64,000 nt of DNA, from NCBI GenBank assembly GCA_008632985.1, contig QPGO01000151.1, forward strand, positions 1-64,000, in the 5' to 3' direction. The stretch is from Psammoneis japonica. Lineage: Eukaryota. The notes under the pieces were generated by a model. That model saw only the letters and a program-made list of their open reading frames with translations, was not told where the DNA came from and made no database searches. Both the position numbers and the translations under genes were made by a program. Each line of letters opens with the position of its first letter. The first letter of the stretch is position 1. Positions 7,935-60,955 of this stretch are shown here, piece after piece.

Positions 7935-9254
7935 AAGTGTCAGGTAGAGCCTACCAGTTTATAAGTAATAAGATACCTGATTGTGGTGGCGCTTTCCCGG
8001 TCGCCGTATTCGAAATCATCTTTTCCGCTTCGGGGTTGTATTGATGCAAGTCCAGTTGGGGCAGAGGTGATGCATGACATGCAACAACGTCTCTATGTAC
8101 TCTTGCTGGTCACCAAGCGGTAAACCCACTTCTGTTGCTGAAGCTTGTTGCGACCCCCAGTGTGCTGCGCGCGGGTCCTCGATAACCGCTGATGGCAATA
8201 GATCCTCGACTTGTTGGAGGATCTTGCCAAGGCTGCCCTCGCATTTCAAACTGGGCACACATGTTTCAAAGACCTCTCGGTAATCTTCAATCCGATTGCA
8301 CGAGTGGAGAGGTCTCTGTCATCATAGAAACACACATGGATCATCTTAAAATCCTCCTTCAAAAGGAACAGTGACATTGTCATGACCCCATTTCCCTTGA
8401 CCATTAAAGGTGCTGAAATTCATGACATGGCTCTGTTCTTCACAATCATGCATCCATCTTCACCAAGGATGATTCATTCATTCTTGCAAGAAACACCACC
8501 TTCTGACAGCTTGTCAACACAATCTTGGTTCTTCTCAGCATTGGTTTTTATTCCACACCCTGCAGAACCATGCCACTGCCACACCAAACAAATCAGCAAC
8601 ATGCTTTCAAGCATTGTTGTTGCCTTGTTTGGTCACCCTTGACAAAAGTTCCTTGTGCTCCATTGCATGGTGCTTCAGCTCAGAATGCTTTTGTGCACCC
8701 CTGTTCCTCTTTTCTTTTTCAGCATGCTTTTGGTCATAATTTGGATTTTTCACCTGCATGTGGACACTGCATTCCCTTTGGCACTGGGAGTTGTTGGTCT
8801 TGACCATTGTTGCAGTTGTCAATGAATGAGACTTGTCACAATGGTCAGTGCATGGCAACATCATGAGTTTTGTGCGGTGCAAGCAGATGGGTTTGTCAGG
8901 TTTTGTGCTCCATTTCAAAACTTTTTTGTTTGTGATCATGTGGCCACACAGTCAATGGATGCCATTGTGGATTTTCTTGGTTGTAAGAGCAATTTTTTGT
9001 GGCTTGTGGCATCTCACTGGTGCAATGAGTGCTGAGTGTTTGGAGGATTTTGGCACTCCAATCAGTCAGATGTGCCAACCTGTCCTGTGACCCAACATTT
9101 GTTTTGACACTCAAAGATGAGATGGGCCAATTCCACAGCCACACAAACCCATGATCCAAGAAGAGAGTTGCAAGCAGGACCTGCCACAAAAGGAATGAGA
9201 GCAGGGTGTGAAATCATGCCTGTGCAAGACACTGGAACAGGTTCCAGCAGACCG

Positions 9255-9520
9255 CGAATGAGAAAAAGGCCAAAATGCCTCAAGCTCTGTCTTGATCAAT
9301 GACGCCATTTCACTCTTTTCATGGTGTCACCCAAAGGGGGTTGCAAGGCAAGGAGGCTAAGGCAGTGCTTTGCACAACATTGCTGCAAAGCTGGCAGATG
9401 AATGGCAGAAGCCTTGCTCAGAAGTGCGCCGATTTGTGAGTGCTGCAAGGATGAGCATCGCTGCTGCTGTGAGAGCTGCCCATCAGTGCCTTGCTTGGAA
9501 GCTTGCATGTCACTTCTTCT
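9255..9520 (+). mobile_element. Relic C-terminus (restriction-like endonuclease region) of a CRE/R2-type non-LTR retrotransposon
   Basis: Across frameshifts: KCLKLCLDQ*RHFTLF..GKEAKAVL..NIAAKLADEWQKPCSEV..RMSIA..VRAAHQCL, resembling the recalled KYL..CL.QRRHF.PF..KW.KPYS.V..RMSIA.VRA.H.CL consensus. Confidence 0.7.
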
Positions 9521-10189
9521 CAGATCAGCTCCAGGGGGGCACTGGTCTGTCCCTTTGCAAGTGCCAAAAGGCCCAACCTGAGTCAGATTCTCCACTTGCA
9601 GAGACAGAGTGCCAAAGCCACCCCATCATCACAAGATGCCATGGACAAAAACCTTGCCTCCTCAAACAATGTGGGCAGCACCCCAGGCCCTGCAGTGTGC
9701 CAGGATTGCATTCAAATCACTCACGCAGGATGGCGTGCACAAAACCCAACCCAAATTCACACAACTGCATTTTGACAATTGCACAAAACCCTTTTGGTGC
9801 CCTGCTGTTCACACTGTTTTGCATCTGAGTGCAGCATGGTGACTGGTGACGCGATGCACCATCAATGTTGTTAAGGCAATTGCAGAAGCAGAGGGCAAAA
9901 GCAAGATGATTTCATTTTTCAGGATTTTCCACTGTGCCAGAAAGATGCAGCATGCCACACATCTCATCACCAAAAGGCAGCAACATGAAGGTGGTGTGTT
10001 GTTGCAATGTCATGTCAGCAATGTGCTCCAGAGTCTTTTGTCATTGTGGACATTCAGTTTGTTGAGTTTGCAACAGCTTTCATTTGTGCATGTCTCCCAG
10101 GACAGCCCTCACTCATTTTCAAAATGTTGCAGCAATGGAGGAGAGCTCTGTTTTTCAACCAGTCACTTTGGTGCATTCATTGTTGAATG

Positions 10190-11900
10190 ATTGAGGCTGC
10201 ATCCAGCATTTGAAAAGTCTCATCATCATCATTGGCATTGAACGGCAATTTGTCAAGCAAATTGCACTCACCAGAATCCAAAAAATCCAACTCAGCAGAA
10301 TTCTGATTCCCTTCAATTTCACCAACAGCATCACTCTGTGACATCATCTTCTCCACCTTGCCAACATTGCCACCATCTCCTCCCTCTCCAGCTTCAGCCT
10401 CAGCCACTTCATTTGTCTCATCCATGCACACAACCTTCACCATGTTTTCTTCTCCCTTCAACTTCAGGTGTTCTGCATGATTCAGACACTTGCTTTTGAC
10501 CTCCATGTGAGGCAACCAGAGTGCCTTTGCAAGATTTGCATGTCTTTGCTGTCTTGCTCACCTTCTTGGCTGCTGTTGCTGGCAAAGGTGAGTTTGTTTT
10601 GTCTGCAGCATCTCCAGAGACATCATGTTTTGCAAATCCCATCCCTCTCCCACAGCCTCCATCATGCTTGGATTTCTCAAAAGCTGCTTGGTGGCTTGAT
10701 TTCTGCAGCATTTCACAATGACATTTTTTCTGCCTGATCTTGTTCACTGCCAGCTTCTGCTTTGCCAGCTTTGTGTTTCTCTCCTTGTCAATCATTGCCA
10801 GCCATTCTTTTGCACTGTCTGCCACAGGAATGCCCAGCTTTCTGTGCAAAAGGCAAAAACAGTCTCTTGGCAGCCATGGACAGCAGTGCTTGTGGACATG
10901 GAGATGTGGTTCTGAAGAGACATGAATCAGCCACACATCCGGTTCTTTGGTGTGCACAATGCAGTCATCTGATTCAGCACCTTGTTTGCTTGCATGTTGT
11001 TCTTGTGTGCAATTTCTTGTGGCCTCTCCAAACTGACAAACACTTGGCCACAATTTTGTGCAACTCTTTGTGCAAGCAGGGATCAATGTCTTTGCTGCAG
11101 CACTGATCCGATGTTTTCACTTGCTCTTCTTTGCTTTCCATCTTTTGTTTGCGCCAATTTCCACAATGCTGGTGGTTGTTGAAGTGATGTTCAAGAAGGC
11201 CTTGGAAGCATTCTCTCTCATTCAGTCTCTGGCAAGTCAAGGAGCTGTGTTCTCATGTGCCCAAAATTCTTCACAAGCCTCAACATGTCACAACATGCAA
11301 TGGATGTAACTTTCTTCCCCTTTCTCTTCAGATCACACAAAAGCTGTCCAAGAAAAAATGTCTTCAATGAGATGGACCCCACTTGAATTTGGGTTTGGGG
11401 ACTCCTCACTTCAGTTGGCCTGTGCGCTCCACTTTCACCAATTTGCCTTGTGAATTGGGTGCCCTTGGCCAGTCCTTGAGACATGGCCATGCTTTGCCTT
11501 GTCTTTGATCTTTCACTTGAGCTGAGCCCACATCAAGGAGTTGTCATCAGCGCCAGTCAACCCAGGGGACACTTTCTTTTTCTTGCATGTCTCCTTGCAC
11601 AACAGAACAGCACTGTGTGCTTCCAATCACTTTGAATGGCCTTTGCAATTCAAGGGGCACTGGTGCATGGGCACAGTGGCATGGCCAGTGCATCACATGC
11701 AGATGTTCTGCTGCTTGCACAAAACCATCACAATGATTGGCTTGTGAAGCTTGGGGCCAATGACAGCGGCATCTTCAGAGAGAGAGAGGCGTGCCATTGT
11801 CCACTGTGATGAGCTTGCCAGCCCATGTTGGTTGACACTGTTGCAGAAATGCCATTTGCCGGATGCCATGCACTGGTGCAAAGGAAGGAGAGTGCACATT
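10190..11900 (-). mobile_element. Degenerate Mutator-like transposase
   Basis: VSTNMGWQAHHSGQWHASLS (DMGWQKR.SG.RY.S.S), HQCPLNCKGHSK*LEA (H.C..NY.GSSK.ME), ADDNSLMWA (DDDS.MRA), LEHHFNNHQHCGNW, TQANKVLNQ..TPKNRMCG. Confidence 0.78.
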
Positions 11901-12149
11901 GCGCAAACAGAAGAGGATGATGAGTTGGATCCTCAATCAATTTTTCAGAGAAGATGTTGAGTCTGTCATGAGAGCGGAGCCCAAACAAATGCAAAGGAGC
12001 AAGTGTGTTGCGTCTTGCCATTGGATGCAGTTCTTTTACAAGTGGCTGTGGAACGTTTGTCACGAACTCGGCCTTTCCATCTGTGACAACTGCATCTGGT
12101 GTTTTGTCACTGTGATGTGATGTTGGCACAGTGTGTGGCTTGCTTGCTC

Positions 12150-13200
12150 CTTGTTTGCACACAGCACGCAATTGTCATTGCAAGTCTTTTGAAAGGGTTC
12201 CCATCCTCCTTGAAGCAAAAAGCAGTCTCTGTCGTTCTTGTGGGATGACAGAGTGGGAGCGCGATTCATGGTGGCAGCGTTGCGTCCGGCAGCTGCTCCA
12301 TTTTTGATCAATGATTCCCATTTGCTGCTGCGGCATGACCCATCATTCATGGACAACAACCAAACGTTGCTGCATCCTTCCAATCCACCATTCTTGCATT
12401 TGGCACCACCAAACAGTGCGGCAACACCATCTTGCACGGCACATGGACAAGGCAAAGCACAAGGACACAGAGCATTGTTGGTCATTTCGACACATGTCCA
12501 TTCCCATGTGGATGCATCCAATGCAAACACCTCATTGGACATGGTCCCATCCTGTGCGGCTCCACACATCATGAGCAGCTTGTTTTTCGACATTGGTGTG
12601 GCGGCATGCAAACCACACACCACATGGTGAGGGGGTGTCACCCGCTGTGGCTTGCTTCTCAACAACCACACCACTGCCCTTTTCATTGACAGTCACAACA
12701 AGAACGTGATTGGCGCAGCAATGAGTGTGCAACAAAATGCAGTCGTCATGCAAAGCAACCGCGACATGATGACTTGCAGGTCCATCGGGCAGTTTGATGT
12801 TTTCCAGCACATTCCATTTGCTTCAATCCTTTAATTGCACGACATCGTCTAGAATGATTCTGCCAGTCCCTGATGTTTGTGGATCCCAGCCACCAAACAA
12901 GGTGGGCTTGTTTCGTAAAATGGAGCAGGCAGATGCCAACCGTGGGTTGGGAGCATCGCTGGCTTTTTGTGGAATCCAACCTCAATCATTGCTCCACTTC
13001 CACAAATCATTCTTGACATGTTGAGTTGTGGCATTGCCGTTTTCTTCTTTTTCTTCCACATGTCCACCAAAGACGTGCAAGTCACCTTGATTTGTCACAA
13101 AAGAAACATGTCCGGGTTGGGGTGGAGCGATCTTTGCACTCCTCAAGATCTGTCCACTCAGCCTTGCAGCTCGTTGCCAAACTCTCAACTTGCAGCATCA
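12150..13200 (-). pseudogene. Kelch-repeat protein pseudogene (hypermutated host-gene copy)
   Basis: GHVSF..GDLHVFGGH, NDLWKW, LFGGWDPQT, LFGGA, LLQGGWEPFQKTCNDNCVL; stops and frameshifts; expected Tyr replaced by His/Cys. Confidence 0.85.
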
Positions 13201-13563
13201 TGACAAAGAACAACAATGCAAGTGTGCAGCTAAATTGTGATGCACAGTGGCGACTCATTGTCCTGTTTTGTCATGACTTGTGACAGCAGCAGCAACAAGA
13301 ACCACGAACCGCAACAAAAGAGAAAAAAATTCTCCACCAAACCCTTGCACAGACTGACCTTGCTTTTTTTCCAAGTGTGAGAAAAAATTTGCTCAATGTG
13401 GGTTTATGCCCATGTTCAGTCATTGACAGGTCTGAATGAACCATGTGAAAAAAAAAAGATTTTGACCAGACAAAATCGGGTGAAAATCGGGAAAAAATCT
13501 GCAAAATCTTTTTTTTGAAAAAAACAACAACAACATGCATGTTGAGTCATAAACACACACACA

Positions 13564-13609
13564 ATCAACTGTCTGCAGACAGTCCACAGACAGTCTGCAG
13601 ACAGTTGAT
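13564..13609. repeat. Perfect 17-bp inverted repeat (hairpin)
   Basis: ATCAACTGTCTGCAGAC (13564-13580) / GTCTGCAGACAGTTGAT (13593-13609); related palindromic run TCAACTGTTGATCAACAGTTGATCAACAGTTGA at 13758-13790. Confidence 0.85.
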
Positions 13610-14859
13610 CTGTTGTTTGTCAATGACTGAATCCATGTGTAAATTTTTTTGAAAAAAAGCATTTTTTTTCCAAATGAAAAAGAAAATTTGCCAAATGTGG
13701 GGGTTCATTTTCGGAAAAAAATGTTGTGCACATGTGCGTTCATTGTAAAAAGCATTGTCAACTGTTGATCAACAGTTGATCAACAGTTGAATTTTTTTGC
13801 TGTGGCGCAAAAAAAAAACACCAACAAAAAGACGACCGACGATGCAACGGAGATGTCAGCAGATCATTCTGCCGGCAAAATGTCGTCGTGAAGTTGCAAC
13901 ATCCAAGTTTACAAATGAGGTTGTTGTCTGTCGACACAATCGCTCCTTCCACCCAGTCACAATCATGGACAGGCACTGGCCAAGAATTGGTTGGATGAAA
14001 GGTCGCTTGCGACTTTGGCACGTCCGTCTCGTTGAATGGAGATGAGACGATTCTTGCAATTGGAGACACAACAAACATTGCTGTGCAAACTGTGCTGGTG
14101 GTGTTCTTCTGTTTAAATGCTGCTCTGCCTTGGACCGTTGGGTTCTGCTCATCAGCGATGTTCCTGGACAAGCTGATTGTGACCGATTTGGATTTCCGTG
14201 TTGCTCTCGGACGTGGGAGACATTGTTGCTGTCGGAGCTTGCCATCAAAAGACGAAAAATGGGACAAGGTCAGGGTTGGTTTGATTGTTTGAACATGATG
14301 TTGTCATTTCATCCTGGAGCCATCTCGGGCAGAGAGTTGTTGGTCGAGCTGCAGATTGTCAATTTGGCATTTCTGTTTTGCTCACTTGGAAACCGTTCTC
14401 ACTGTTGGGACAAACAATTGGAACAAATGAGGGTGGGAATGACAATCAATCAACACAACAATTGCCAGTTGATGCTGGCGCCCTCTGCGGGCTTTTAGCC
14501 GACATTCGTGGAAACAAAGCTGGTTGCAGGTGTTTGAACCATGCTCTGAAGAGATTCACAAATCATGATGAATGGCCCACTGCTTCTGTTGGCATGCTGC
14601 AAATCGATCACAACAAGTCAAACCACAACTCTGTCTAAGTGCGCCATTGTCACCAGCACACCATGCCACAAGAGAAGCATCATGCGCTTGTTTTCTTTTC
14701 CACTCTCGGGCAAGCGGACCTGGCTCAATGTCACCGCAGCTTGGATGATCAGCACAGTTCATCAGGAAGCATCTTTTCTGTTTCTTCATCCTCTGGTGTT
14801 GCCTGCTGCTGCTGCTGTTGTTGATTGTGATGATGTCCAAAAAAGTGGAGAACCATGGC

Positions 14860-15210
14860 AGACACACTCACGACGAGTCCGTCACATTGAATCCCACTCA
14901 AGGAATGTCCACAAAACCAAATGGATGCCACCAGTGTCATAACCTTGCATGCCAATCCAATGATGGAACACGTCAGGGCCCCAAATTCAGCAATGGTGAC
15001 AAAAATAGAAACTTGTCTGAGTGCACCACTCAAACTGAGAGCCGAGAGCCACCAACAAAAAGCCCGTTTTTCGAAGGACATGAACTTTGTTGAGTGCAAG
15101 GTGTGACATGCCAGCCAAGATGGTTTTCCCCAATTGAACATTGAATTTACACTCATGAGCTTGTCCTCGTGTGCACCCGTGCCACCGTCAAAGCAGTGGA
15201 AAGTGGCAAA
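14860..15210 (-). pseudogene. Fragment of a UAA-family (SLC35B) nucleotide-sugar transporter, hypermutated
   Basis: FDGGTGAHEDKLMSV and IFVTIAEFGALTCSIIGLACKVMTLVASIWFCGHSL match the family C-terminal pattern (DG..G.Y.D; FGAL....I...RK..T...S...YGH). Confidence 0.78.
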
Positions 15211-16044
15211 CATTGTTTGTTCCATGCTCGCACACACTCATCCTCCCCACAAAGAGCGCCACACCACCACAATCATGACGACATTGTCACATTGTTTCTT
15301 CACAGGACATTTTCTTTCCTCTTTCCCATGAGAGCCCCCACAAGCATCACGTGTGCTGGTTTGCAACTCTTGGCTCTTGGTTGACACTCAAGTGGGACAA
15401 ATGACATGGCGAAGTGACCTTGCCGAACAAAAGACACTGCCCATGGGGAGGTGAGTCCCAAAATGGCAAAGCGTGAAGCTGGTGGAACAGTGGTGGGTGT
15501 GTCGTTCTGAACATAACGTCCTGCCGCGCAGCTGTCATGGTGTACAATGACGATGTAGCAAACAAAACGCAAGTTCGTGCAACTTGCGTCCACCCGATGT
15601 TGTGCACTCCAACAACAATCCGTGCACGACAAAGGAGTGCATGATTCCAAAAAAACACAAGAGCAACCACAGGAGTTCTGTTTTTGTACAGTACAGTAGT
15701 TTTCTCTTCTGAAACAGAACATCAACATCACACCAAGAACTACTGTAAACAACTGTAACACCCGACACCCGCACACCAAAGAAAGTGAGTGCGGGAAGAT
15801 GCGTTGGGCGGTCGCAGAATTCGCGCGATTGGATTTTTGGAATTTTTGAAATTTTTGGTGCTGACGTCCAGATATATTTACATCTTAACATCCGTATATA
15901 TTAGAGCTCGCGACCAGCGATGATGGTTTCGATGATTCTTCATTTTCAATTTCACCATGAGCACACACCAGCGCCGTTGCCGCACAACCAACCACCAACC
16001 ACCAACCACCAACGTTGATATAAAGCCCCGATAGCACAAAGAAG

Positions 16045-17753: not shown

Positions 17754-17894
17754 GGACACCCATGAATTGATTTGAATGATTCAATTCAGGAGTGACAAAA
17801 AAAGAAAGATTGGACACCCCTGAATTGAATCAACACTAGCGATCGGACACTCCTGAATTGAATCGAGATTCTTTGGCTCAATTCAGGAGTGTCC
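17754..17894. repeat. Cluster of five 17-bp motifs GGACACYCCTGAATTGA in both orientations (probable transposon end)
   Basis: Forward at 17754, 17812, 17845; inverted at 17781, 17878; 17845-17861 and 17878-17894 are perfect reverse complements. Confidence 0.85.
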
Positions 17895-17954
17895 ACGAGG
17901 ACACGTCTTCTCTGGATTGATTCTTCCTGAGAGGAAATTCTCACATATTGCGCA

Positions 17955-33037: not shown

Positions 33038-33519
33038 GACTGAAGAACGCTCTATGATCTTCCACCGACCACCATGCCATGCAAAAGGGACGGCTGATAA
33101 GTTCCTATTGCTGCCCGCTCATGGTGATTTCGAAGAAAATCCTAGCCTATGCACATTGCTCATGGATCTGTGAGGTAGGAATATTTAAAAGCCAAGTTTC
33201 ATTTTTCAATTTTACACTGTTTGTGCTCGTAGGTTTCCAGACGCACCGTCAGCTGTCACTAACGTTGCTGGTGTTCGTTCCTCATCCCTTGTGACATGAT
33301 GTGTGTGTATGATGTGTAGCAAGAAAAGGTCAAGAGCCGAAGAGACATCGACGAGACTATAAGGGAATCGAGAACCCAACCCAAGAAGATCGCAAACCGG
33401 TTCGAAGCCAACAAGAAAAATGAGAACGTGGCTGAGAAAGAGTGTGGAAACGAGAAGAAGGACGAGAACAAGAATGCCAACAACCTGGAAGGCCACTTTG
33501 TTGTTGGCATTAGACTGGT

Positions 33520-36500
33520 GATGACATGAGGAAAACTGTGGTGAAGCAGTGAACATGCTGAGAATGGGGGGTCTTCAAAGTGAAAATTGACCCGACCGCA
33601 CACCGTGCAGCCCTCATGAGCAGCCACTGCTTCTGGAGGGGGTCTCTGATTTTGTAAATCCGGGCCTGATGGACACCGCACCCATTGTTCCAACATTTTT
33701 GTTTGGGAATCACCGCAGATGAGAATCTGGCAGTGTGCCCCAGCTGCTGCCGGCATTTGGGACAACGCAAAACCCTCTGTGTGGCCTGTGGTGAGCACCA
33801 GCACTGTGCTTTGTTCTCAACCACACTCACAAGTGTGCTGCATGTGCTGTGCATGTTTCGTCTTTTCTTTGTGGCATCTGGTTGACATGTTGGTGTCAAG
33901 GCAGCACAAGCCACTGCTGGATTTGACGAACTTGCCCCCACACAGGCACTTTTGCTGTGCCATTTAAAGACATTTTTGCATGACTGGCTGACATGTGCAA
34001 CTCAGCATTTCCATTTCAGCAATGTGGAAGGCAACATTGGCAACCCATCCCTGTTTGGGTGCTGGTGTTGCACCTCTCCTTGCCTGGGATGGTTTTCTTT
34101 GAAATTTGCGTGCTTGCTTGTCTTGCCAGTCATGGAGTGGATGCTCTGAGCCACTCCTCTGGTTGGTGCTGTGCATGTGAGCAGTTGCCAGCAGATCATT
34201 GCTCATAAATGCACCAGGTGTTGTTGGCTGGTTGTCCAACAGGGCCCAAGTTCATTGGTTTGTGGCAGCTCATGGCAGCTCATTTTTTGTGTGGTGGGCC
34301 CTGCCTCTTCATGTGTGGCACAGCAGAGGAGCTGGAAATCCAGGGAATCTGGTGCTGCATTGTTGAACTCTCTGCTTCCAAGTGCTGCACTGAAGTTGGC
34401 TGCTTCCACCTTTTTGTTCTTTGAACATTTGTTCAAAAGCAGCAACCTGCTCTTTTTGCCAAGTTGGTGGCATGCAACACAATCTAGAAACTTTCACTTC
34501 TGTGCTTGTTTGTTTTCCTTTCTTTCATTTCTGCCTGTTGGTGTTCTTGAGTGCCACTCCATCATTTCTCTGTTTGTGTGCTGGCAACCAGTGTTTTCTC
34601 TTCTTCCTTCCAACTCACGAGCATTGTGTGCAGGTGCAGATGTTGATCATTTCCAAGCGCAAAATTGTCAAGATGGCTTCTTTTTCAATCCACCACACAT
34701 GGTGCTTGTAATCTGCACCTGGCAGCAGAAATGCCACAGACAAGTGTGCCTTTTTTTTTCCAACTCTCTGATTTTTCAGCATCATCAACTGCCCTCCCTG
34801 GGTCAACTCCTGCAGGAAAAAGACAGGTCCATCAAAGCAATGTTCACAATGAAAGTGTGACATCTCTGACATGAGGGGTGTGACTGCAAGGGCAGGAGGA
34901 GCATTTTTCATCCAAAAGCACAAGACAACATCCTCAAATCATGTGCTGGTGGTGGCCAAATCACAAAGTCACAAGCTCAACAAGAGCCAAAATGATGCCA
35001 GTGAGATCAAGGAAGTTGAGAGACCTGGAAAATCTCAAACCTCAGCTGCAAATGGGTCTGGAGGCAACAAGAAAAATGAAGCAAAAGAGCACTGCCAACA
35101 AGAACATAAAAAGCAACAGTGTCACCTGCGCTGGCAAAAATGTTTGCAAACTGCAAGCAAAGCAGTGAAAGTGGCAAAGAAGAGCAGCACCTCACTCTTG
35201 CACACCCAAGGATTTTCCAACATCTGAGGTGTTCCCAAAAACTCAAACTGGACAAATGTGGAAATCAGGTGCCAATCTCACCAAGGTTTGGCTCCAGTGG
35301 TCATGTCTGGGCATGTGTGCTCAGCAGCCTCTTCTGTGCAAACTTGCAAATGCAGCTGGTGGGAAGATCTGCACAAACTTGTGTCAGAAACCTGCTTGCA
35401 CAAGCTGCAAGAGGCAGTGCTGCTGGGCGCAGCTTTGAAAAACAGCGTGCACAAAATTGAACACACAGAGGACACAAAACACAAGCACTCATCAACACTT
35501 CTTGTCAATGATGCCGCTTTGCACATCACAGCAACAATCTCCCCAGTTGCCTGGCGCTGGGCTTTCAAAGGCATCAAAAGGCTCCACATTGAAGAATTGC
35601 AGCCTTGCAAGCAAACAAATGATGCAAATGATTTGAGCGGTGCCACCAGCCACCACTGCCAACAGCCACACCAAAACACCAGCAGCGGCAACAGCTCCTG
35701 AGTCAGGAGGCAGGAGGAATGGCTGTCTCACAACAATTTCTCAGCCTTGTTGTTGTGTGAAAGCATGGAACAAAAATTGTGGTGCAGGGGTTGCCAACAG
35801 GAGCTGTGGCTGCCATGGATCCCTTCAGGATTCTCCCATGCACAGTCTGCAGCTTGTGATTGAAACAATGTTGACACACAAGATGTCGACGTCAACCACA
35901 TCTGGACAATCTGTTGCAACTGGATTCTCTAAAATGCCTTTCCTCTGCAGGAGCAGCACAAATGCTTTGGGCCATTGAGAACACCATCGGAGAATCCCAC
36001 ATGCAAAATGCGATCTCACAATTTCCACTTTTTGTGTGACTTGTTCTGCTTCTGTTTGTGCTTGTTCTTCAAGCACAGGAGTGCACAGCATTTTCTTTTG
36101 AGGTGGGAAAATGCAGCATGAACTTCATGCAGAGCAAAAATGTGCAGAAAGAAGGAGGTGATCCAGTGCAGCTCACTGCAACAAATGAGCTGCCACAATG
36201 TGCCAGTGTTTGGGACTTGTCTTCTGCCAGCAAAGAGCGCCACACAACATGTTCACATGACTTCCTCAACATGTCTCTTGGGCAGCAGCAGGAGACATTG
36301 AACTTCACATGGCTTTGGCAGGAAAGTCTTTTGTGCTGCCCACTTTGTCTGACTGTCCCATGCCAAAAAGCACCCGTGGCATTGAAAAACAAAAATCCAC
36401 TTTTGTGGCAGCAGAAGAAAGTTTCTGGTGTGAAAATGCCGTGTTGCCACCCATCACAACAAGCGTGCATTTCAGATGTTGACATCCTTCAGATCATTTT

Positions 36501-37700
36501 TCAGATTCAACTGCACATTGACAAAGGATTTGGACAAAATGTTCTTCGTTGAGTGAGCCCAAAGTGCTCACATTTCTTCCTGCCTTTGGTTTTTCTGAGG
36601 ATGCCCAGCAGCATGGTGGTGCAACATCAACCAACACTTTTCTCCAGAGTGCCAAAAAAGCAGCTGCACAACAGGTCAACAGTGCCCCCCCCCCAGAAAG
36701 CCATTTTCCAATTTTCCCTGTCTGTTCAGGGCACCACCCCAACAGTTTGTGAGCTGCCTTGGTGAAGAATTTTGCAATTGCCCAGCGAAGTTGACATTTG
36801 ATTTTGCGTCTCCACGTGCACAGGTCTAACCCCAAATGAGCGATGGCCTCAATCTTGCAAGTGCAGACAGCAACAGGCACAGTTGTTGCCAATGTCTTTT
36901 TGGCAAATGGGTGGCAGACATGAGGCAGATTTTTCACTTTTCAGGTTGGCAGTGCTCAACACACCACTGCCAGGGCAATGTGGCCTCAAAAAGGATGAAA
37001 GAAGCACCAAGTCATGCCCCCCACAATGTGAGGAAGTCTGGGGCTGGGGAGCAGTGCACTGGTGAACAAGTCTTTTTTGGTTTGCATGCATTGAAGTTTT
37101 GTTCCCCCCCCAGGAGCTGACAACACAAACGTTTGTGGCAACAGGAAGAGGAGACATGTTTGCACCCGCCAGGAAGCAAGCAAGCCCAGCTCCTTGTGCA
37201 GACAGGCATTTTGTGCCCTGCAAAACCAAGGTGATTTTGAAATTGTCTTTCAGAGCCAACTGATGAGAATGAGACCTGCGCCAAAGCAAGTGTCAATGCA
37301 AAAAATGACAAGGCCAAGACAACAAATGCCATTTGCATGTGCTGCGTGCATGCTGCACTTTGACATGCCCTGCACAAAAAAGCAGGGCTCTCTCAAGCAA
37401 ATCAACTCTTGTCTTGTTGATGATTTTTTCTGCAGTGTTTGCATGAGATCAGCAAAAATGGTGGTGATCTTGGCGCTCAAATTGATGCTGCATCAACCAA
37501 CCCAAGAACGATGCCCTGCAAAAAACACACACGACAGCGAGAGATGCGAGAGATGTGCCATCACTGCCCCCACCACCGCATCATGTCAGCTGGCAACCAA
37601 AAAGACACAAGGCATGCAACACGACAAAGGAGGACAAGATTGCACCAGCAAAAGGGCAATGGGAAACGTGTGCGGTTTTTTGTCGATGGTGCGAATTTTG
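33520..37700. other. TpA-depleted hypermutated block B (unclassified repeat/TE relic)
   Basis: Same TA/CG loss and TG/CA excess; dense Cys/His-rich spurious ORFs nearly lacking Tyr; family not recognised. Confidence 0.88.
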
Positions 37701-51625: not shown

Positions 51626-52080
51626 GGCGTCCTTACAGTCATAGTATCAGATACCAACGCAGCGCAAGAACAGCTAAGTGTGTGTACAGCAGTGAGAACG
51701 GTGAAAATAGCCGTTGATGGATTTCTGCCCAGTTTCAGGCCCAGTTTCACTGGCCCAGTTTCAATGGCGTCTCGACATCAGAGGAGGACAGGAGTGTCCC
51801 GTACCGGTACCGTACGGTAGACTATGAGGCTACGACTAGCATAAACGTACCTGTTATACCGGTCAGACATTTTGTATTGGATTTTATGTACCCCTTTATT
51901 TAACGATAACGGTTCTTGCCAAAACAAATAGCAGGTTTTACATGTGTTACATATACAAATGTCTCACAAAAGTGCATACTTTTCAACTATTTAGATGTTT
52001 TTGTAGGTGTTACACATTCAACCGTCGATACTCCGTTTGTCAACTCCGTCTTTGAATAATACTTCATATATGCTCGAATG

Positions 52081-52081
52081 N
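52081..52081. other. Single N, probable contig join
   Basis: Only ambiguous base seen; composition changes abruptly across it. Confidence 0.7.
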
Positions 52082-54334
52082 TCATGGAAACTCCTCCTCT
52101 TCCAAATGCAGAGCACTCTTTCTTCAAGTTGAAAGTGACAATGAACCTGTTTTGATTGGGAAAGACAAAGCCAGTTTCTTGGTTTGAGTTTTCAAATTGA
52201 GTTGATGGTTTGATTTGTTGGCAGAGTTTGATTCCTCGGCATTGGCGAAAGACAAACACGCTTCCAAATCAATCGCAACACACATTAGAGTGCAGTCAGT
52301 GGAAGAAAACCACTGGGGATTCACCTTGTGTTGGCAGAAAAATTGCTGCTCTAGATGCTGCTCAAGACCAGATGTTTGCTGCTCGAGATGTTGCCACTCA
52401 AGACCAGCCAGACTGTCGCTCAATGTGCAAGATGCAATGCCACAAAAAGCACAGACTGCTTCTAGACAGAAGTGTCAACTGCTTGATGCAATGTGACACA
52501 CCACTTTAGAGACTGGACAACAGATGGTGTGACACCGCTGGAGACTGGCTGGATTTGCGTGCTCGATGTGACACCACTCCAGAGAGACTCTGCACAGACC
52601 ATTGCTGAGATGAGATGTTTTCTGCTCCTGCTTAAGCCACCAACCTTGAACACTCTAATTCTCCATCCCTGGGACCCACATTTTTGAAAGTGCTTTGCTG
52701 CTGCATCCGAGTTGCTGAAAGCAGCACCCCACAGTCCAAGTCTTCTTGCCAACACTCCTGATTGCCCTCAAGTTGTCCATGGTGAGGGAAGCATGCTTTT
52801 CATGCTGAAAACATTTTTTTGATTGGATTGAGGTCAAGACTGTGGTGCAGTGTGCAGAAACCTTGGCATTCACATGTGACTGTCAAGGGGCTGCTTCAAC
52901 TGGGACAACTGCCAAGGCTTGGAGAGTTGCCTTGTTTGCAGGACGAGTGTCGCAAGAGAGATGTTTCTCGGATTCTTGGGGAACATGTCAAGCGCAACAA
53001 CTGCCAAGGGTCAGAGAGGACACCGGTGTCATGAGAACAGCATCTGCTGCTTGGATTTGATGATGGCCAGAGTCAGATGTGCTTTTGGCATCATGTTCTC
53101 AGCAACTCAAATGACAAGCTTGAGACAAACCCTTGTCAATGTGGCGAAATTTCATGAGGCTGCTCACTTCTTGAATCATCCACTGCCCCATGCCAAGCAA
53201 CCAAAGCTGACATTCCATCTGAGTGCAAGCAAGCACACACAAGTCCAACTCCAATCCTGTCACTCATCATCAGTGCCTCCAAGAATTGCACTGATGACGA
53301 GACTCACCAATCAAAATGATGTTGTCATTTGCGCACTTCTTGTTCCTTGTTGCTCTTGGTCTTGGCGGTGGAGCCATTCATGAGAATTCTGAACAGCAAA
53401 GAACATGCTTGGCACTGCATTCTCACAAACATGATTCCAAGGCAAGAATGTGGGAAGCTTGGGTGAGGAAGCCACCAGATCCAGATCTGCATCGCTCATG
53501 TTGACGTTGTCATGGTGAGGTTGGCTGGGCTGCAAGTGAAAAACCAGTCTGTCCTCTTCCAACCAGTCTGTCCTCTTGCAAGAGCAAACTTTGTAAAGCA
53601 ACTTTTTTACAATGGCTCCCCAATGTCTGACATGTGAGCCCAATCTGCAAGCATTGGTCAGAAGGTCAATGGAGATCTTGGCAAAAACAGTGGGATGAAT
53701 GTGCACTGCATCACAGAGCACAGTGTGGCGGTGGGGGCAAAAGCAGCACATTGCCATTTTCTAAGAAAAATGTGCCTTTTGAGAATTTGCAGAGATTTTT
53801 TGTCATCAATTGTCCTCATTGATGGATGATTTTTACATTGTCCATTTCCAATTTGTGCAAAACACCTGGGTGCTGCAAAGTGCAAGTGAGGACAAGGCAA
53901 AACAACAATGAGCGAGAGCTTGTTGGCCCACATCATTTGATGCAAGTGTGCATTGTGGACTCACCATGCTGGCATTGCAAGAGACAATGGCTGAACAATT
54001 GACTTGCTGCACAAGAAGTTGGATGCCCAAAAAACTCTGCAAATTTTTCGGAACATTGCCATGCAGAATTCTGCTGATGACCGGTCTGTCCTCTTGGTGT
54101 GAAAAAAGGCCCTCATTGTGACAGCAGCAATGGCATTCAGAGCCATGAACCTGGTGAATGCAGGCATGAGAGCACGTCAATTGACAATGTGAGAAGATGC
54201 AAGAAGCATTGCACACTGAAAAACCCATCAATTTTGGCAACAAAATTGACTTTTACAAAGATGCCAAAAGGTGGAGGACAGACCGGTTTTTCACTTGTGG
54301 GGTTTTTCATTGCAAGGAAGCGGTCAGCCCAAGA

Positions 54335-54831
54335 TGCTGCACCAGTGAAAAATTCAGCGGACTTTTTTTCAGGATGAAGTCACAGACCCCACAACCCACA
54401 CATCAGCAGAAGGCTCATGCAGAGCTTTTTAAGATGCACTCAGTTTCATGTTCAATGGACACAACTGGGAAAGCTTTAGCTTCTCTGAAAGCACTTGGGT
54501 TTCCCAAGCTGTCGCTTGTGTGCAAGCAGCAGATTTTCATGTTCTGGCAATCACATGTGCGTTGACACACACATGGGAGTGCAGTGGCTGGAGTTTGCAA
54601 CATTCACACAAACTTGAATTTGACAAAAGTGCTTGGGGAACAAACCTTGTTGCCATTTTGCATGGGCTCTGCAGGTCTCACCATGACAAAACTCAAAAAT
54701 CAGCTTTTGTCATGCCACACAGAAGAGCGGGTGTTCTGCGTGGCATGACGAAAGCCAATTTTCAATTTTGTCTTTCATTTTTGAGATTTTACATGCAAAA
54801 AAAGTCTGCTGAATTTTTCACTGGAGCGGCA
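54335..54831. repeat. ~35-bp inverted repeat pair enclosing ~0.43 kb (MITE-like or subterminal transposon structure)
   Basis: CCAGTGAAAAATTCAGCGGACTTTTTTT (from 54342) versus AAAAAAAGTCTGCTGAATTTTTCACTGG (to 54824), one mismatch at a CpG. Confidence 0.75.
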
Positions 54832-54899
54832 AGGAAGAAGACAAGGAAAAATCTTTGTGCCATGAAGCTGCGCAGAATCTGCACAGATCATGACATCAG

Positions 54900-57800
54900 C
54901 GATTGTGCGTCTGACACTTTCACAACCACATCACACATCATCAAGCACACAACTTGCAGTGACAGCCATTGTTGGCCATGGACATGCGGGTGTCCAGAGG
55001 AAGCTCAAGGAGAGCTCCTTGTTGACAATGCAAGTTCAACAGGAAGACACAAGTCAATGTTGGGAGGAGCGGTGATTGCAAAAGACATGGTGTCTGTTGT
55101 TCCCAACAAAGGCATTTTTGCCACAGCAGTGACATGTGCTGATGAGAATGTTGTGGCTGGCCACCCCAAGGATCCAGAAGAAGAAGAAGCCAAGAAACTG
55201 CTGGAGTCAAGGAAAATCTCCTGAAGGAAGAAAATTTTCAAGAAGCGCAAGAAGTGGCAGATTTGTGCCGTGAGAAGCTCCTGAGTGCAAATGACTTGAA
55301 GACCACTGCAGCTTCAGACCTTGAAGAATGTCATTGAGCACTCAAAGAGAGAGCTGAAAATGTGTGACTGAGACGTGCAATTTGTGTTGTCAGGAAAATG
55401 GGCTGGAGTCATTGAAGCAGCTGCTTGTGTGCTGCAGCCATGCCTTGACAAGGAGCAAAATGTGAAGTCAAGGCAAGATGATGTGGAGCTGTCATGCCAG
55501 AAGCACACAGCAGTGTCATCAGCTGTTGACCTTGCCACTCATGCGGGAGAGGACTCTGACAGCAATGCCAACAGCAATGACAACAAGGATGAAGATGACT
55601 CTGGATGTGTGCGCAACTCAATGAAGCACAAAGCCACTTGGAAATGCAAGTCAAAAAAGGTTCCCCAAGGCTCGCTCCTCTTCCACTGGCAATCAGTCAA
55701 AAAAGAAACACTGCAAGAATGGCAGTGCCAAAAAGGAGGGCAGCTGTCAGAAGCAGTTGATGGACGAAGACTTCCTGAGCAAGCTGAAGAAGCCATGCAA
55801 GAAGTTTTAAAGAAACTTGCCCAAATGGATTTGTTGGTCAGAGCTTTGCGTTTGATCACGGCACAAGCAGGTGTCAGTGTTGCAGCACTGCGGTCACTTT
55901 CTGCAATGTGTTGCAGCATGTTCATGGCTCCAAGAAAGGCAAAACAACAGATCATCATGCAAAGCTCAAGAAGTGGAGTGAAAATGAGCAGCATCAAGAA
56001 AGTCTCTGCTCTGTTCACAGCAACTGGCAGAGCTCCGTCAACACCCTTGGTGAGTGCATTGACAAGGACACTCACATCTTCCATGTTGAAATCACCTGGA
56101 TGCTTTGTGCAACCACCACACCAATCAACAAAGCTGGTCCCTTGAAGCCAATCATGCACAAGCACACAAACTTCAGCATTGGTGCAACCACGTCTTTGTC
56201 AGATTGCTTTGTGACTGCCCGAGAGTGTTGTCTCAAGTGCGTCAAGGAGTGCATTGCAGACAGCTTTGCCAAACATTCTGTTGTCATTGATGGTGCTCCA
56301 TCATTCACCAAAGCCAAGGGCATCAAAATCTGTCTTGCACCCAAGAACTTCAACATCCCCAAAGAACCCATGACTTGTGTACATCTCTTGAAAAAGTCGC
56401 CAAATGCAGCTCTTCTTGGAAAAGTGATGGTGGGAACCCCCATGAAAGACATGTCTTTGTCCTTGAAGGATTTGTTGGCTGTTGGCATGGATCATTGTTG
56501 TGCCAATCATGCTTCAATGACATGGCTGAAGGATGCTCACAATGTTGTTGCATTTGAGTCAAAGTGCAGCTCTCATGCTCTGATCAAATGTGGAGAGAAA
56601 TTCACAGACTGTACTGGGAAGAAAGCAAGACAGCTTCTGCCTGACCAAAGTGTTTCAGTCTCACCAAGGAAAAGCTTGTCTGCCATTCCAGGAGGAGTTT
56701 GGTGTCATGCCATTGGTGAAGGGTGGCATTCATTGGTGGATTGAGTGGGAGATGGCCCAGCAGAACACTGGATTGTCTCTCAAGAAGATCCTTGCAGCAG
56801 CAGTGAGATGCACTGAAAGAGATTGTTCCACCAAGTTGCAAAAAAAAGCAATGGAGCACCTCAATGACAACGCAACCATGGCAAGGGTGATTGTTGAAAT
56901 TGCAGCTGTGGCAGGTGCTGGATGTTGTTTTTACATTGGCACACATGTGCTCTTGAAGGTGATGCCCCTCTAATCTGTGTTGCTCATGAGGAGCTGCTGA
57001 AACTTGAGGTGACCACTGTCAAAAACAAGGCCCTGTGTCCTTTTCTCAAAAAGGCAGCAGAAAAAGCAGAAGAGCTTGTTGCCCCTGTGGTGCACGAGTT
57101 TGATTTTGCAGATTGTGGAGCTTGCTGACAAACTTGAATCAAAGGAAGAAGCAAGGGATGCTGTCATGGCAACAGCAGCAGATGGAGTGTCTGCAGAGGA
57201 GCATGAGACCAAGGCAGGTGGCAGGGGCTGCAGTTGCCGTCATCATCACCCAGGTGTGCATGCCAGTTGATTGCAACAAGCTTGCCACTCCTGTGGCAGC
57301 ACCACCAAACCCTGTTGTTGAAGAAGCAGATGCACTGGAGGATCTTAACAAGGAGGCAGAAGATGCAGAAAAGGAACTTGAGAAGGTGACTCAAAACAAG
57401 GAAGACTTCAAAACAAAAGCAGGAGGTGAGAGCAAGGCCAGTTTCATCAATCATGGCAAAAACATTGTCACACCAGGGAACAAGCATTGCAAGAAGACAC
57501 ACTTCAGTGCCAATGGTGAAATGTGTGAGGTTTGAAAGGCAGTCAAAGTGGCAAGCACACTCAGTCCATTTGTGCTTGAGAGGAGTTCTTTGGAGCAAGT
57601 GCCCTTGCTGTTTGAACTCTTGAAAGCACTTGGATTCCGTCACTTTGCCCATGCTGAATTCATTGGAGGACTGTGCAGCCAAGCAGGTGGATTGATTCAA
57701 GCAGCAAATGCTCCACATGATTGGGGCTCTGTTGAAAGAGCAGCATCTCACAACAAAAGCCCAGCAAGCAAAGACAAACCAGAAGAAAGCTGAAGAGGAA

Positions 57801-58080
57801 TTGGCTTGTGCAGTGAAGTGCAAGTCCTGGGAGGAGGATCCGTCTGAGAGGGCAAGGCAAATTTGGCATTGGTGGCAGGACCACAAGCCACACTTTGAAG
57901 ATTTTGCAACTGCTGTGCATCTTGTTGCTCCAGCTCAAGTCTCAAGTGCATCTGTTGGATGTCTTTTCTCCCAGCTCAAGCTCATTGTAAACTCGGTTGG
58001 AGAGAGATTGTGCTGAAAGAGACCCTGGGAGCTCATCTCTTTGTCCTCAAGAATGTTGTCCCTGATGGCATCTGCCTCGC
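54900..58080 (+). mobile_element. Degenerate hAT-superfamily transposase
   Basis: VVIDGAPSF, MDHCCAN, CSSH (CxxH), IHWWIEWE (TRW equivalent), LEGDAP, and dimerisation domain WHWW..FATAVHLV...QVSSASVGCLFSQLK (SSA.VER.FS). Confidence 0.82.
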
Positions 58081-59014
58081 ACATTGAGTGCAATTTGCGC
58101 AGTGTTCGAAGTGTTTTGGCAAGTGTTTTGGTGGCCGTGGGCTCCAACACACATGACTGGATGAGTGAACTGCTGGACAACAGCACCACATTGGCTCAAC
58201 TTTGCAGCACATCACAACAAATGGTTTTTCCTTGTGGCAACTTGGTCCCCACTGGCATGTTCTGGCAGCTGTGGGTTCCAGAGACAAGTCTGCTGCTGGT
58301 GAAAGGACCATGTCAGTCGCAACTGTGCAGCAAACAATGACAGTTAATTTTTCCTTGTCTGGTTTCCTTGTCTTTACTTGTCCAAGGAAAGTCAGGGCCA
58401 AACAAGGAATTCCCCACAATCAAAAACCCCAGAGGCAAGGAGCGAGACCTGCCACACTTGTGGAAACTGGGGTGCAATTTGGGGGTGCAAATGCATGCAC
58501 CTGATTTCTGCACAAGCAAGTGCAAGAGTCTGAAATGTGACAGCTGCAGCTCTGTGAGCACTGGAGTGCACATTGAACACATGCTCTTGAAAAATTGATG
58601 ACACCCAAGCAGGAACAACTCAACATCTCTAGTTCAATCAGTTTGTCTGCAGGCAAGGCAGAACATTCAAATGACTGCAACAAAACACAGCGGTCGCTGT
58701 TCTGACAAGCCTGGTTGATTTGCAATGACGCCGTCAATGTTGCGCGTTGTTGTTGCATCCATGGCCAAGGTTTCAGCAACCATGTGGCATGTTTTTCTTC
58801 AGAAAATGCAGGAAGTTGCCATCATTTTGTTGTCTGTTGACCAACCTCATCATTTTTTGCTGTTCTTTCTTTCATGAAAACACATCACAATGGCTCCCCT
58901 CCAACAATTTTTCACATCTCCTGTTGACTGAAGTTCATTGTTGATTGACATGGCTGTCATTGTTGTTTGATGCTCAGATGTTTTCTGCCATTGCAGACAA
59001 TGCTGAGTCTGCTC

Positions 59015-59350
59015 TGACAAGGAAAACAACTCTGTTGGTTTTGTTGACATCAAAGAAAACAACCTGTTGGTTTGGCTGATGTCAAGGAAAACAACCAATT
59101 GCTTTGGCTGACATCAAGGAAAGCAAGCTGTTGTTTTTGTTTGCATGAAGAAAAGCAGCGTGCTGCTTTGGCCAATGCCAAGGAAAACAACCTGTTGTTT
59201 TTATTGACATCAAGAAAAACAACCTGCTCTTTTTGTTGACATCAAGAAAAACAGCCAGTTGTTTTGGCTGACATCAAGAAAAGCAGCTTGTTGTTTTTGT
59301 TGATGCCAAGGAAAACAACCAGTTTTTTTTTTTGCTGAAGTCAAGGCAAA
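59015..59350 (+). repeat. ~32-bp subterminal tandem repeats (GACATCAAGGAAAACAACCTGTTGTTTTKGYT)
   Basis: About 10 degenerate copies; inverted copies at ~63390-63515. Confidence 0.85.
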
Positions 59351-59564
59351 CAACATGCGTGGCTTGCGTTTCTTGGTTCCGCCGCCATTGTTGTTGGCCT
59401 CTGCAGTTTCTGGTTTGTTGGGTGCTCTGGGTTTGTCTTCAACTTCCATCTCTCATTGGGTTTGGGTTTTGGGTTCATCAATCTCAATTTTTTCCACCCC
59501 CCACTCTGATCCATTTGTGGGACACTCCTTTGCACCAGCTGCATGTTGTCGGAGTTGTTGGCGC

Positions 59565-60780
59565 GGGTTTTCAGAAAAGCTGTGGGGCAAAAACAACTGC
59601 GGGTTGAAGGATTTTCAGAAAAGATGTGGAGTGCAAAAAGCTGTGGGTCGCAGGATTTTCAGAAAAGCTGCAGGATGCAAAAAGCTGCGGGTTGCAGGAA
59701 TTTCAGAAAAGCTGCAGGATGCAAAAAGCTGCGGGTTGCAGGATTTTCAGAAAAGCTGCAGGGTGCAAAAAGCTGCAGGTTGCAGGATGTTCAGAAAAGC
59801 TGCCAGGGGTGCAAAAAGCTGCGTGTTGCAGGATTTTCAGAAAAGCTGCTGCGGGGTGAAAAAAGCTGCAGGTCGCAGGATTTTCAGAAAAGCTGCGGGG
59901 TGAAAAAAGCTGCGGGTCACAGGATTTTCAGAAAAGCTGCAGAGTGCAAAAAGCTGTGGGTCACAGGATTTTCAGAAAAGCTGCAGGGTGAAAAAAGCTG
60001 GAGGTCACAGGATTTTCAGAAAAGCTGCAGGGTGAAAAAAGCTGCGGGTTGCAGGATTTTCAGAAAAGCTGTGGTGCGCAAAAAGCTTTGGGTTGCAGGA
60101 TTTCAGAAAAGCTGCATTGTGCAAAAAGCTGCGGGTTGCAGGATTTTCAGAAAAGCTGCTGGGTGCAAAAAGCTGCAGGCAGCAGGATTTTCAGAAAAGC
60201 TGCGGTGTGCAAAAAGCTGCGGGTTGCAGGATTTTCAGAAAAGCTGTGGGGTGAAAAAATCTGCGGGTTGCAGGATTTTCAGAAAAGCTGCACGGTGAAA
60301 AAAGCTGCGGGTCACAGGATTTTCAGAAAAGCTGCGGTGTGCAAAAAGCTTCAGGTTGTGTGATTTCAGAAAAGCTGTGGTGTGCAAAAAGCTGCGGGCC
60401 GCAGGATTTTCAGAAAAGCTGCGGTGTGCAAAAAGCTGCGGGTTGCAGGATTTTCAGAAAAGCTGCAGTGTGCAAAAAGCTGCGTGTCACAGGATTTTCA
60501 GAAAAGCTGCGGGTCACAGCATTTTTAGAAAAGCTGTGGGGTGCGAAAAGCTGTGGGTGGCAGGATTTTGAAAAAAAGCTTTTTAGAAAAGCTGTGGTGT
60601 GCAAAAAGCTGCGGGTTGCAGGATTTTCAGAAAAGCTGCAGGTTGAAAAAAGCTGTGGGCTGCAGGATTTTCAGAAAAGCTGCAGGGTGCAAAAAGCTGC
60701 AGGGGTGCCAAAAGCTGCAGGTCGCAGGATTTTCAGAAATTTGGATTTTTAGAAAAGCTGTTGCAGGGTGAAAAAAGTGC
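59565..60780 (+). repeat. 44-bp minisatellite, roughly 27 copies
   Basis: Unit GCAGGATTTTCAGAAAAGCTGCGGGGTGCAAAAAGCTGCGGGTT; GGAWTTTCAG core recurs at 59609, 59653, 59697 (period 44). Confidence 0.95.
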
Positions 60781-60794
60781 AGTGCTGAGTCTCG

Positions 60795-60955
60795 CTCCAA
60801 AGTTGGTGCACCAAGTTTTTGCCCAAAACGTTTGCATGCTGAGTTTGGCCCCAAAGTTGGGATGCCAAGTTTGGCCCCAAAGTTGGCATGCCAGGTCTTT
60901 CCTTAAAGTTGGCATGCCAGGTTTTGCTCCAAAGTTGGCACGCCAAGTTTGGGCC
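60795..60955 (+). repeat. ~26-bp tandem repeat (CCAAAGTTGGCATGCCAAGTTTGGCC), about 6 copies
   Basis: CCAAAGTTGG recurs at regular spacing; unit is quasi-palindromic around GCATGC. Confidence 0.85.

Follow-up and report, generated by a model that had tools for sequence, protein, structure and literature searches.

The subject of this analysis is a Kelch-repeat (β-propeller) pseudogene on the minus strand of a 64,000-nucleotide (nt) stretch of contig QPGO01000151.1 (assembly GCA_008632985.1, Psammoneis japonica); the whole stretch is referred to below as the window. Kelch relatives were reached in two protein searches, at E-values of 6.7e-35 and 2.7e-40, which yielded nine and 148 proteins, respectively. 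The relatives aligned were the 49 of P0001–P0066 with lengths of 290–520 residues, shorter fragments and longer proteins being excluded. Nodes 34–373 of a hidden Markov model (HMM) of 376 nodes, derived from these 49 sequences, align collinearly with the pseudogene in four stop-free minus-strand fragments (13146–12988, 12969–12829, 12819–12598 and 12647–12141). There is no intron-sized gap in this coverage, and the unit is intron-free. Both halves are recognised as Kelch by Pfam entry PF24681 with E-values of 8.1e-10 and 1.3e-9, although the associated scores of 38.8 and 38.2 bits lie below the 50-bit cut-off of that entry; the second half clears the cut-offs of Kelch_4 (25.3 versus 21.6) and Kelch_2 (23.5 versus 21.3). 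After the start codon, a third frame encodes a hydrophobic N-terminus and a KAEW motif. The pseudogene and the features within it are as follows:

12147..13258, minus strand: full-length Kelch-repeat pseudogene, beginning with the ATG at 13258 and ending with the codon that precedes the relatives' stop site
13131..13150, minus strand: probable second frameshift, between the KAEWTDLEE and IAPPQPGH frames, judged by eye in a part outside the reach of the family HMM
13060..13062, minus strand: invariant Tyr of the family replaced by His CAT (FGGY to FGGH, TAT to CAT), Tyr being present in 43 of 43 aligned relatives
12982..12984, minus strand: in-frame TGA stop, from frame translation and family alignment
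12823..12825, minus strand: in-frame TGA stop, from frame translation and family alignment
12611..12624, minus strand: 7-nt tandem duplication (tgtggt g tgtggt) causing a frameshift within the PSPRGLH motif, from the sequence and its frames
12144..12146, minus strand: Gln codon CAA at the usual stop site of the relatives, a candidate TAA to CAA change that is suggestive only

The Kelch unit is a dead gene: it contains two TGA stops, the duplication frameshift and a probable second frameshift, and it has lost six near-invariant Arg residues and the invariant Tyr. An earlier note on this DNA, made from the sequence and its reading frames, had called the unit a Kelch pseudogene, and the Pfam matches, the collinear HMM coverage and the disabling lesions uphold that identification. 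Both copies of the 7-nt duplication carry a Cys codon, TGT, where 42 of the 49 relatives have Arg. At the C-terminus, 37 of the 49 relatives have four to six further residues between an aligned Cys and their stop (mode five; P0010 ends in CVSKQ), and the pseudogene reads CANKE, then CAA, then some 28 more codons to a TGA near 12060.

There is no Tyr codon in any of the frames used for the Kelch pseudogene, as the earlier note had remarked of its reconstructed frames; the mean Tyr content of the relatives is 1.6%. Over the 1112 nt of coding length, the dinucleotide TpA occurs four times against an expected 39.4 and CpG 33 times against 69.9, the expectations being taken from 12 long open reading frames (ORFs) in the same window. 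We conclude from these counts that the absence of Tyr is a matter neither of chance nor of codon usage.

Conserved protein positions record the polarity of the changes, because Tyr can be written only as TAY and Arg was written in the parent as CGN. The latter point follows from the two Arg codons that the Kelch copy has retained, CGG and CGC, among eight columns in which at least 86% of the relatives have Arg. The other six columns have been changed to Gln CAA (13119 and 13023), His CAT (12771) and Cys TGC or TGT (12720, 12617 and 12461), and all six codons (CAA, CAA, CAT, TGC, TGT and TGT) are single transitions from CGN. The column at 12461 depends on the alignment of a PxPRA motif and is lost in a second alignment. 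In addition to the invariant Tyr at 13060–13062, five columns in which Tyr is the commonest residue now read His (13077 and 13020), Thr (12903) and Cys (12182 and 12170). More generally, 104 columns have a consensus of at least 70%; the pseudogene is identical to the consensus at 86 and changed at 18, nine of the latter being explained by one CpG transition, two by one TpA transition and seven otherwise. Three of the nine CpG changes straddle a codon boundary and were scored from the present neighbouring base. A TpA transition across such a boundary, T|ACA to T|GCA, is seen at 12777.

The peptides on which the earlier note had relied were all located on the minus strand, GDLHVFGGH at 13086–13060, QHVKNDLWKW at 13023–12994, ASHHVAV at 12777–12757 and HTHCC at 12729–12715 in one frame, and KTCNDNCVL at 12188–12162 in the next. 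The direction proposed there, from Tyr and Arg to other residues, is borne out: at the decisive sites the relatives hold Tyr or Arg and not His or Cys. Tyr occupies the last position of FGGH in all 43 relatives, and Arg is found in 45 of 46 at the Gln of QHVKNDLW, in 48 of 48 at the first His of SHHVAV and in 47 of 48 at the first Cys of HTHCC. The pseudogene codon at each of these four positions is one transition from TAY or CGN. The His residues that follow the Leu of LHVFGG and the Gln of QHV are weaker examples, for their columns are only 44% and 50% Tyr. Other residues in the cited peptides are also weaker support. The second His of SHHVAV and the second Cys of HTHCC are the family's own (88% each), and the Cys pair of KTCNDNCVL falls in columns of mixed Tyr, Trp, His and Phe, with Trp and Phe in the closest relative, P0010. 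The Gln of PFQKT, which the earlier note did not cite, is shared with P0010 and is therefore probably ancestral.

The same strand carries another dead cellular gene at a distance of 1.6 kb:

14848..15696, minus strand: UAA/SLC35B1-type nucleotide-sugar transporter pseudogene in several frames, from a Pfam UAA match (E-value 2.2e-6) and a family HMM

The family-HMM fragments of this pseudogene have E-values of 3.8e-48, 2.8e-21 and 5.2e-21. In an alignment with the first 50 listed relatives of 400–520 residues, its 11 Tyr columns read His in three cases, Cys in three, Phe in two, and Trp, Lys and Tyr in one each; the single Tyr retained (TAT at 15515) sits at the edge of the compositional island described below. 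Five of the seven Arg columns are still Arg, one being Gln and one Cys. When both genes are pooled over columns with a consensus of at least 75% and compared with the relatives' own cells, Tyr is replaced by His or Cys in seven of 12 pseudogene cells versus 13 of 693 cells in the relatives (Fisher p = 3.4e-9), and Arg by His, Cys, Gln or Trp in six of 13 versus two of 777 (Fisher p = 1.4e-10). Judged by its aligned sequence, the transporter pseudogene is an independent replicate of the Tyr to His or Cys pattern seen in the Kelch copy.

Both pseudogenes are located in the first of three islands of unusual dinucleotide composition:

8400..15690, no strand: island 1, with TpA observed/expected (o/e) 0–0.1 and CpA and TpG o/e of about 1.7–2.0
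33500..37600, no strand: island 2, of the same composition, with no recognisable protein domain
52080..64000, no strand: island 3, of the same composition, extending to the end of the window, its left edge marked by a single N at 52081

In the rest of the window, TpA o/e is about 0.55 and that of CpA and TpG about 1.1. CpG o/e is 0.04–0.67 in the islands and about 1.0 elsewhere. In percentage terms, TpA amounts to 0.27% inside the islands versus 3.66% outside and CpG to 1.30% versus 5.96%, and the base composition is nearly constant, with a GC content of about 47% in the islands and 48.8% outside. The losses and gains balance: relative to the rest of the window, TA is lower by 3.39 and CG by 4.66 percentage points (sum 8.05), and CA is higher by 4.35 and TG by 3.95 (sum 8.31). 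The edges are sharp, the composition changing within 100–200 nt, and non-coding DNA beyond the islands retains its TpA, with 42 occurrences in 19501–20000, for example. The 5′ part of the transporter pseudogene falls at the right edge of island 1. At the left edge of island 3, dense TpA ends at 52069 and the island starts exactly at the only N in the window; the edge may reflect a join made in assembly and not a biological boundary.

CA and TG are equally enriched in the islands, and their order along the islands is unclustered relative to normal DNA (runs-test z of −0.76, −2.07 and +0.61). This speaks for many independent events on both DNA strands, and against one-strand bursts or the insertion of edited retrocopies; strand-coordinated bursts were considered and rejected on the runs test. 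The loss of TpA is near-complete throughout island 1. CpG o/e is 0.04–0.2 in the left part (8501–12000) and 0.38–0.67 in the right part (12001–15500), where the genes lie. The Kelch copy shows the same disparity when set against the islands elsewhere, its TpA content of 0.29% versus 0.27% representing an equally complete loss and its CpG content of 3.04% versus 1.30% a weaker one. The uniformity of the one loss across island 1 and the unevenness of the other suggest two processes of different speed, the TpA process appearing to be the faster. The gene-bearing right part may be a younger addition, the island possibly being a mosaic of parts of different age.

Searches of the islands for transposon or viral Pfam domains (24 long island ORFs, the six frames of islands 1 and 2, and 84 ORFs of at least 75 residues in island 3) gave none. 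The only Pfam matches were to Kelch and UAA, together with two sub-threshold matches at chance level in island 3 (RING-like, E-value 2e-4; Microtub_bd, E-value 7e-3), and the ORF at 10418–11116 has no relative at E-values up to 0.001. The earlier note's contention that a host-gene copy was hit as hard as the transposons is in this form unsupported: no transposon protein domain was found in the islands, and the Kelch copy equals them in TpA loss but not in CpG loss. A comparison of the window with itself revealed no second copy of the Kelch or transporter gene, nor are the islands copies of one another, the sole matches being among tandem arrays in island 3. The window as a whole is eukaryotic and gene-dense, with ORFs for kinesin, PP2C, GAF-cyclase, AMP-binding, topoisomerase and LRR proteins. 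For one gene of the window, the named relatives that match best belong without exception to diatoms (Pseudo-nitzschia, Nitzschia, Amphora, Cylindrotheca, Fistulifera and Seminavis).

Related copies of this DNA were sought in three sequencing runs, X1–X3, which come from one sample containing the stretch, possibly the sample behind the window assembly. Logan contigs of X1 match 11844–12191, 12390–12930 and 12953–13963 with no other letters over 1901 nt, so that the sequence does not depend on the assembly alone, with the proviso that X1 may be the same sample. At a likeness of at least 80%, 320 X1 contigs fall on 6001–18000, and 205 of these are less than 95% alike. The differences comprise 601 transitions (A>G 141, C>T 163, G>A 139 and T>C 158) and 197 transversions (17–30 per type). 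Among 40 of the 832 difference rows, those listed, 29 are in or at the island and about 17 are exchanges among CG, TA, CA and TG. The listed rows include CA versus TG doublets at 8288/8289 and 8751/8752, TA versus CA or TG at 8260, 8306, 8323 and 8333, and CG in the window versus TG in another copy at 8240 and 8278. Related copies therefore exist that differ in the expected way. Run X2, of doubtful label ('DNA?') and perhaps a transcript assembly, supplies a candidate for the parent or a paralogue, a contig of 1220 nt that is about 88% alike over 12138–13271, with 18 gaps and 135 other letters. For the earlier note's proposal that TpA was lost after duplication, these contigs offer indirect evidence only. 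The best protein relatives, P0002 (47% identical), P0010 (about 48%, by BLASTP) and P0013 (50%), are too distant to be the parent.

We interpret the locus as a dead, full-length copy of a cellular Kelch gene that lies in an island with sharp boundaries, within a nuclear genome of diatom type, and has been rewritten by two context-specific transition processes, and we place the probability of this reading at about 0.7. It is built on the anatomy of the pseudogene, the polarity of its changes, their regional confinement and the balance of dinucleotides lost and gained, all of which are results of the present analysis. The first process would convert TpA to CpA or TpG, by A to G change after T on either strand, and would be close to saturated, the Kelch copy having lost about 90% of its expected TpA. 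The second would convert CpG to TpG or CpA and would be about half complete there. Tyr codons would thereby become His through T to C change on the coding strand or Cys through A to G change, Arg codons would become Cys, His or Gln, and a TAA or TAG stop in the Kelch parent would probably have become Gln. As a rough estimate, the 4 of 39.4 TpA and 33 of 69.9 CpG left, set beside seven of 104 conserved codons otherwise changed, imply that, relative to ordinary sites, change has been tens of times faster at TpA and perhaps 20–30 times faster at CpG. The first process is presumably a regionally targeted TpA hypermutation like that of Bigelowiella natans, for which DNA adenine deamination has been proposed, and the second may be deamination of 5-methylcytosine in CG-methylated repeats; the island would have been targeted because it is repeated or silenced.

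Several observations weigh against this interpretation. As noted above, seven of the 18 changes at conserved Kelch columns lie outside CpG and TpA. Taken alone, the Kelch copy has a single invariant Tyr column and two or three in which Tyr is the plurality residue, in a family with the low Tyr content given above, and one column, at 12903, reads Thr. Two of the transporter Tyr columns have become Phe and one Lys, which TpA transitions cannot yield. Moreover, the substitution contexts were deduced from protein columns and present-day neighbouring bases. Two further points arise from the comparison with B. natans. There the targets are viral inserts, whereas the recognisable content here is two dead cellular genes with no viral or transposon domain found. 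CpG is also depleted here, and the abstract, Results and Discussion of the B. natans preprint contain no mention of CpG; the added CpG loss is most simply a second, separate process.

The likeness to B. natans is nevertheless close. In that report, 230 of 231 mutations in two regions of viral origin are A to G or T to C, all at TpA; 124 TpA-poor clusters rich in CpA and TpG are described; and an ADAT2-like DNA adenine deaminase is proposed (Mettrop et al., bioRxiv 2026, 10.64898/2026.01.13.699255). The dinucleotide rule, TpA to TpG or CpA according to strand, is identical. Regional confinement and a long-term footprint poor in TpA and rich in CpA and TpG are likewise shared, many of the B. natans clusters being without annotation, and there too some TpA-poor coding sequences carry host-type domains. 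In the window the corresponding signature consists of Tyr TAY to CAY or TGY in two pseudogenes and three TpA-poor islands of 4–12 kb rich in CpA and TpG. The two cases differ in degree and in the kind of evidence. Depletion here is near-saturated (0.27% TpA versus 3.3% in the nucleocytoplasmic large DNA virus (NCLDV) region of B. natans), and the mutation rate was measured in B. natans, whereas here the process is deduced from its sequence footprint. The organisms also differ, as TpA outside the islands is 3.66% compared with 6.0% in the B. natans genome (10.64898/2026.01.13.699255) and the window has long, intron-poor ORFs.

Other known systems match in part. Repeat-induced point mutation (RIP) of ascomycete fungi, which acts on repeated DNA, is likewise a regional, sharply bounded, transition-only rewriting that kills genes by missense and nonsense changes and can strike duplicated host genes. 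It makes TpA from CpA, however, raising TpA and lowering GC, and here TpA is erased, CpA and TpG are enriched and GC is unchanged; fungal RIP was rejected on these grounds. Decay of CpG through deamination of 5-methylcytosine is familiar from methylated repeats in vertebrates and basidiomycetes. It would produce the CpG to TpG or CpA changes, the replacement of Arg CGN by Cys, His or Gln, and the confinement of low CpG o/e to the islands, but it accounts for the CpG half only and cannot remove TpA. CG methylation in the diatom Phaeodactylum is maintained by DNMT5a and has transposable elements as its main targets (PMC9998398). Defence editing by ADAR, ADAT and APOBEC enzymes shares with the present case a preference for 5′-T (or U) in the deamination of A and a gene-disabling hypermutation; the main substrates of those enzymes are RNA and single-stranded viral DNA, whereas both chromosomal strands are affected symmetrically here.

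Four alternatives to the two-process reading were weighed. If the Kelch unit were simply an old pseudogene that drifted neutrally with the mutation bias of the genome at large, no particular process acting on the region, the under-representation of TpA outside the islands as well as inside them and the commonness of CpG decay in methylated DNA would be accommodated. Such decay would hardly leave most conserved columns intact while removing about 90% of the expected TpA, a disparity that implies, as a rough inference, far faster change at TpA; nor would it respect edges of 100–200 nt or spare the TpA of non-coding DNA off the islands, and we think it very unlikely. Base-calling or assembly errors at modified bases might instead have turned TA and CG into CA or TG: the islands could be heavily modified DNA, and there is no record of the platform used for the assembly or for X1. 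Against such an artefact stand the agreement of the X1 contigs over the Kelch region, the presence of real stops and of the 7-nt duplication, the consistency of the amino-acid replacements across two genes, and the survival of some TpA and many CpG. We give this explanation hardly any credence.

A more serious contender holds that the Kelch and transporter units are not copies but the original single-copy host genes, killed by a hypermutating or silenced domain that spread from neighbouring repeats in the manner of RIP leakage. The head-to-tail arrangement of the two genes is that of ordinary neighbours; island 1 has its right edge within the transporter gene or at the 5′ end of that gene; and searches of 5.8 and 1.84 billion proteins turned up no relative closer than about 48–50% identity. 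The X2 contig, about 88% alike along the whole Kelch coding length, and the many X1 contigs below 95% likeness, which show that related copies exist, speak against this. The weaker CpG loss in the gene-bearing part is what a younger addition would show, although late spreading fits it too, and on this balance spreading seems to us unlikely but worth keeping in mind. The remaining alternative places the editing in RNA, with ADAR-like adenosine-to-inosine hyper-editing of double-stranded transcripts followed by reverse transcription and insertion of the retrocopies. The Kelch copy is intronless, the likeness of the X2 contig ends near the coding limits, and a 5′-T preference fits ADAR, as is remarked in the B. 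natans Discussion. Editing of one RNA strand does not readily give both Tyr to His (T to C) and Tyr to Cys (A to G) on the same strand within one gene, or equal and unclustered enrichment of CA and TG. The depletion, moreover, spans entire islands, spacers and two adjacent genes included, with common sharp edges. An origin in RNA is accordingly very improbable.

Read as rewriting by two context-specific processes, the locus is a new case of the recently described TpA-hypermutation kind in a diatom-type genome, the novelty residing in near-saturation with coupled CpG decay and in cellular gene copies as the victims. Chromosomal hypermutation specific to TpA had one prior report in the literature searched, the 2026 B. 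natans preprint, in which the long-term footprint is weak and the targets are viral. That search returned no diatom report of TpA hypermutation or of a RIP-like or adenine-deamination defence; Tables S6–S11 of the preprint may list host-type genes among TpA-poor sequences. The footprint in the window is saturated and sharply bounded, and two dead cellular genes reveal its polarity directly, since Tyr codons and TAA and TAG stops need TpA. If the window is truly from a diatom, the process also occurs in a distant second lineage, one of great ecological importance, and may act on duplicated host genes. Questions then open that can be put to tractable diatoms, concerning the trigger (repeats, silencing or foreignness), the deaminase responsible and the relation to CG methylation. 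In practical terms, genes in such islands escape annotation and similarity searching, much as they do under fungal RIP. A much bolder proposal, which we advance tentatively and consider doubtful on present evidence, is that diatoms possess a genome defence resembling RIP but opposite in direction. It would convert 5′-TA-3′ to TG or CA on both DNA strands, probably by adenine deamination, and would be aimed at repeated or silenced DNA. It would saturate while ordinary sites change by a few percent and would erase Tyr codons and TAA and TAG stops from duplicated sequences of every kind, those of host genes among them. Present in a diatom as well as in the chlorarachniophyte B. natans, it would then be an old system of the SAR (stramenopile, alveolate and rhizarian) supergroup and not the peculiarity of one alga.

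Some minor features of the islands and their surroundings may be recorded. The TpA that survives in the islands is enriched in TTA/TAA, the strand-pooled 5′ neighbour being T in 65 of 122 cases versus 600 of 2820 outside. With the islands pooled, surviving TpA is rarest in ATA/TAT and surviving CpG in TCG/CGA (chi-square p of 1e-15 and 2e-10); such biases may stem from the sequence contexts that each of the two processes prefers. Between the two pseudogenes is a 43-nt near-palindrome (13542–13584 and 13589–13631, 79% complementary), flanked by a 39-nt direct repeat (13364–13402 and 13663–13701, 82%) in DNA rich in A/T runs, and the segment 13364–13701 may be a small foldback element. A search of island 1 for terminal repeats gave nothing beyond this palindrome and the one direct pair. 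The summed depth of X1 contigs, which is not a copy number, peaks at 664.8 in 10001–10400 compared with about 51–61 in the flanks, and several X1 contigs have loose ends at 9943–10070; 10001–10400 is probably a high-copy repeat. Island 3 contains tandem arrays at 59568–60708, 59018–59334 and 63407–63515, with a 44-nt unit repeated 25.9 times (80% matches), a 32-nt unit repeated 9.9 times and an inverted partial copy 4 kb off. Just outside island 1, on the minus strand at 15962–16704, an X2 contig spans 15962–16327 and 16428–16704 and skips the 100 nt between them in the manner of a spliced intron, as might be seen for an expressed gene.

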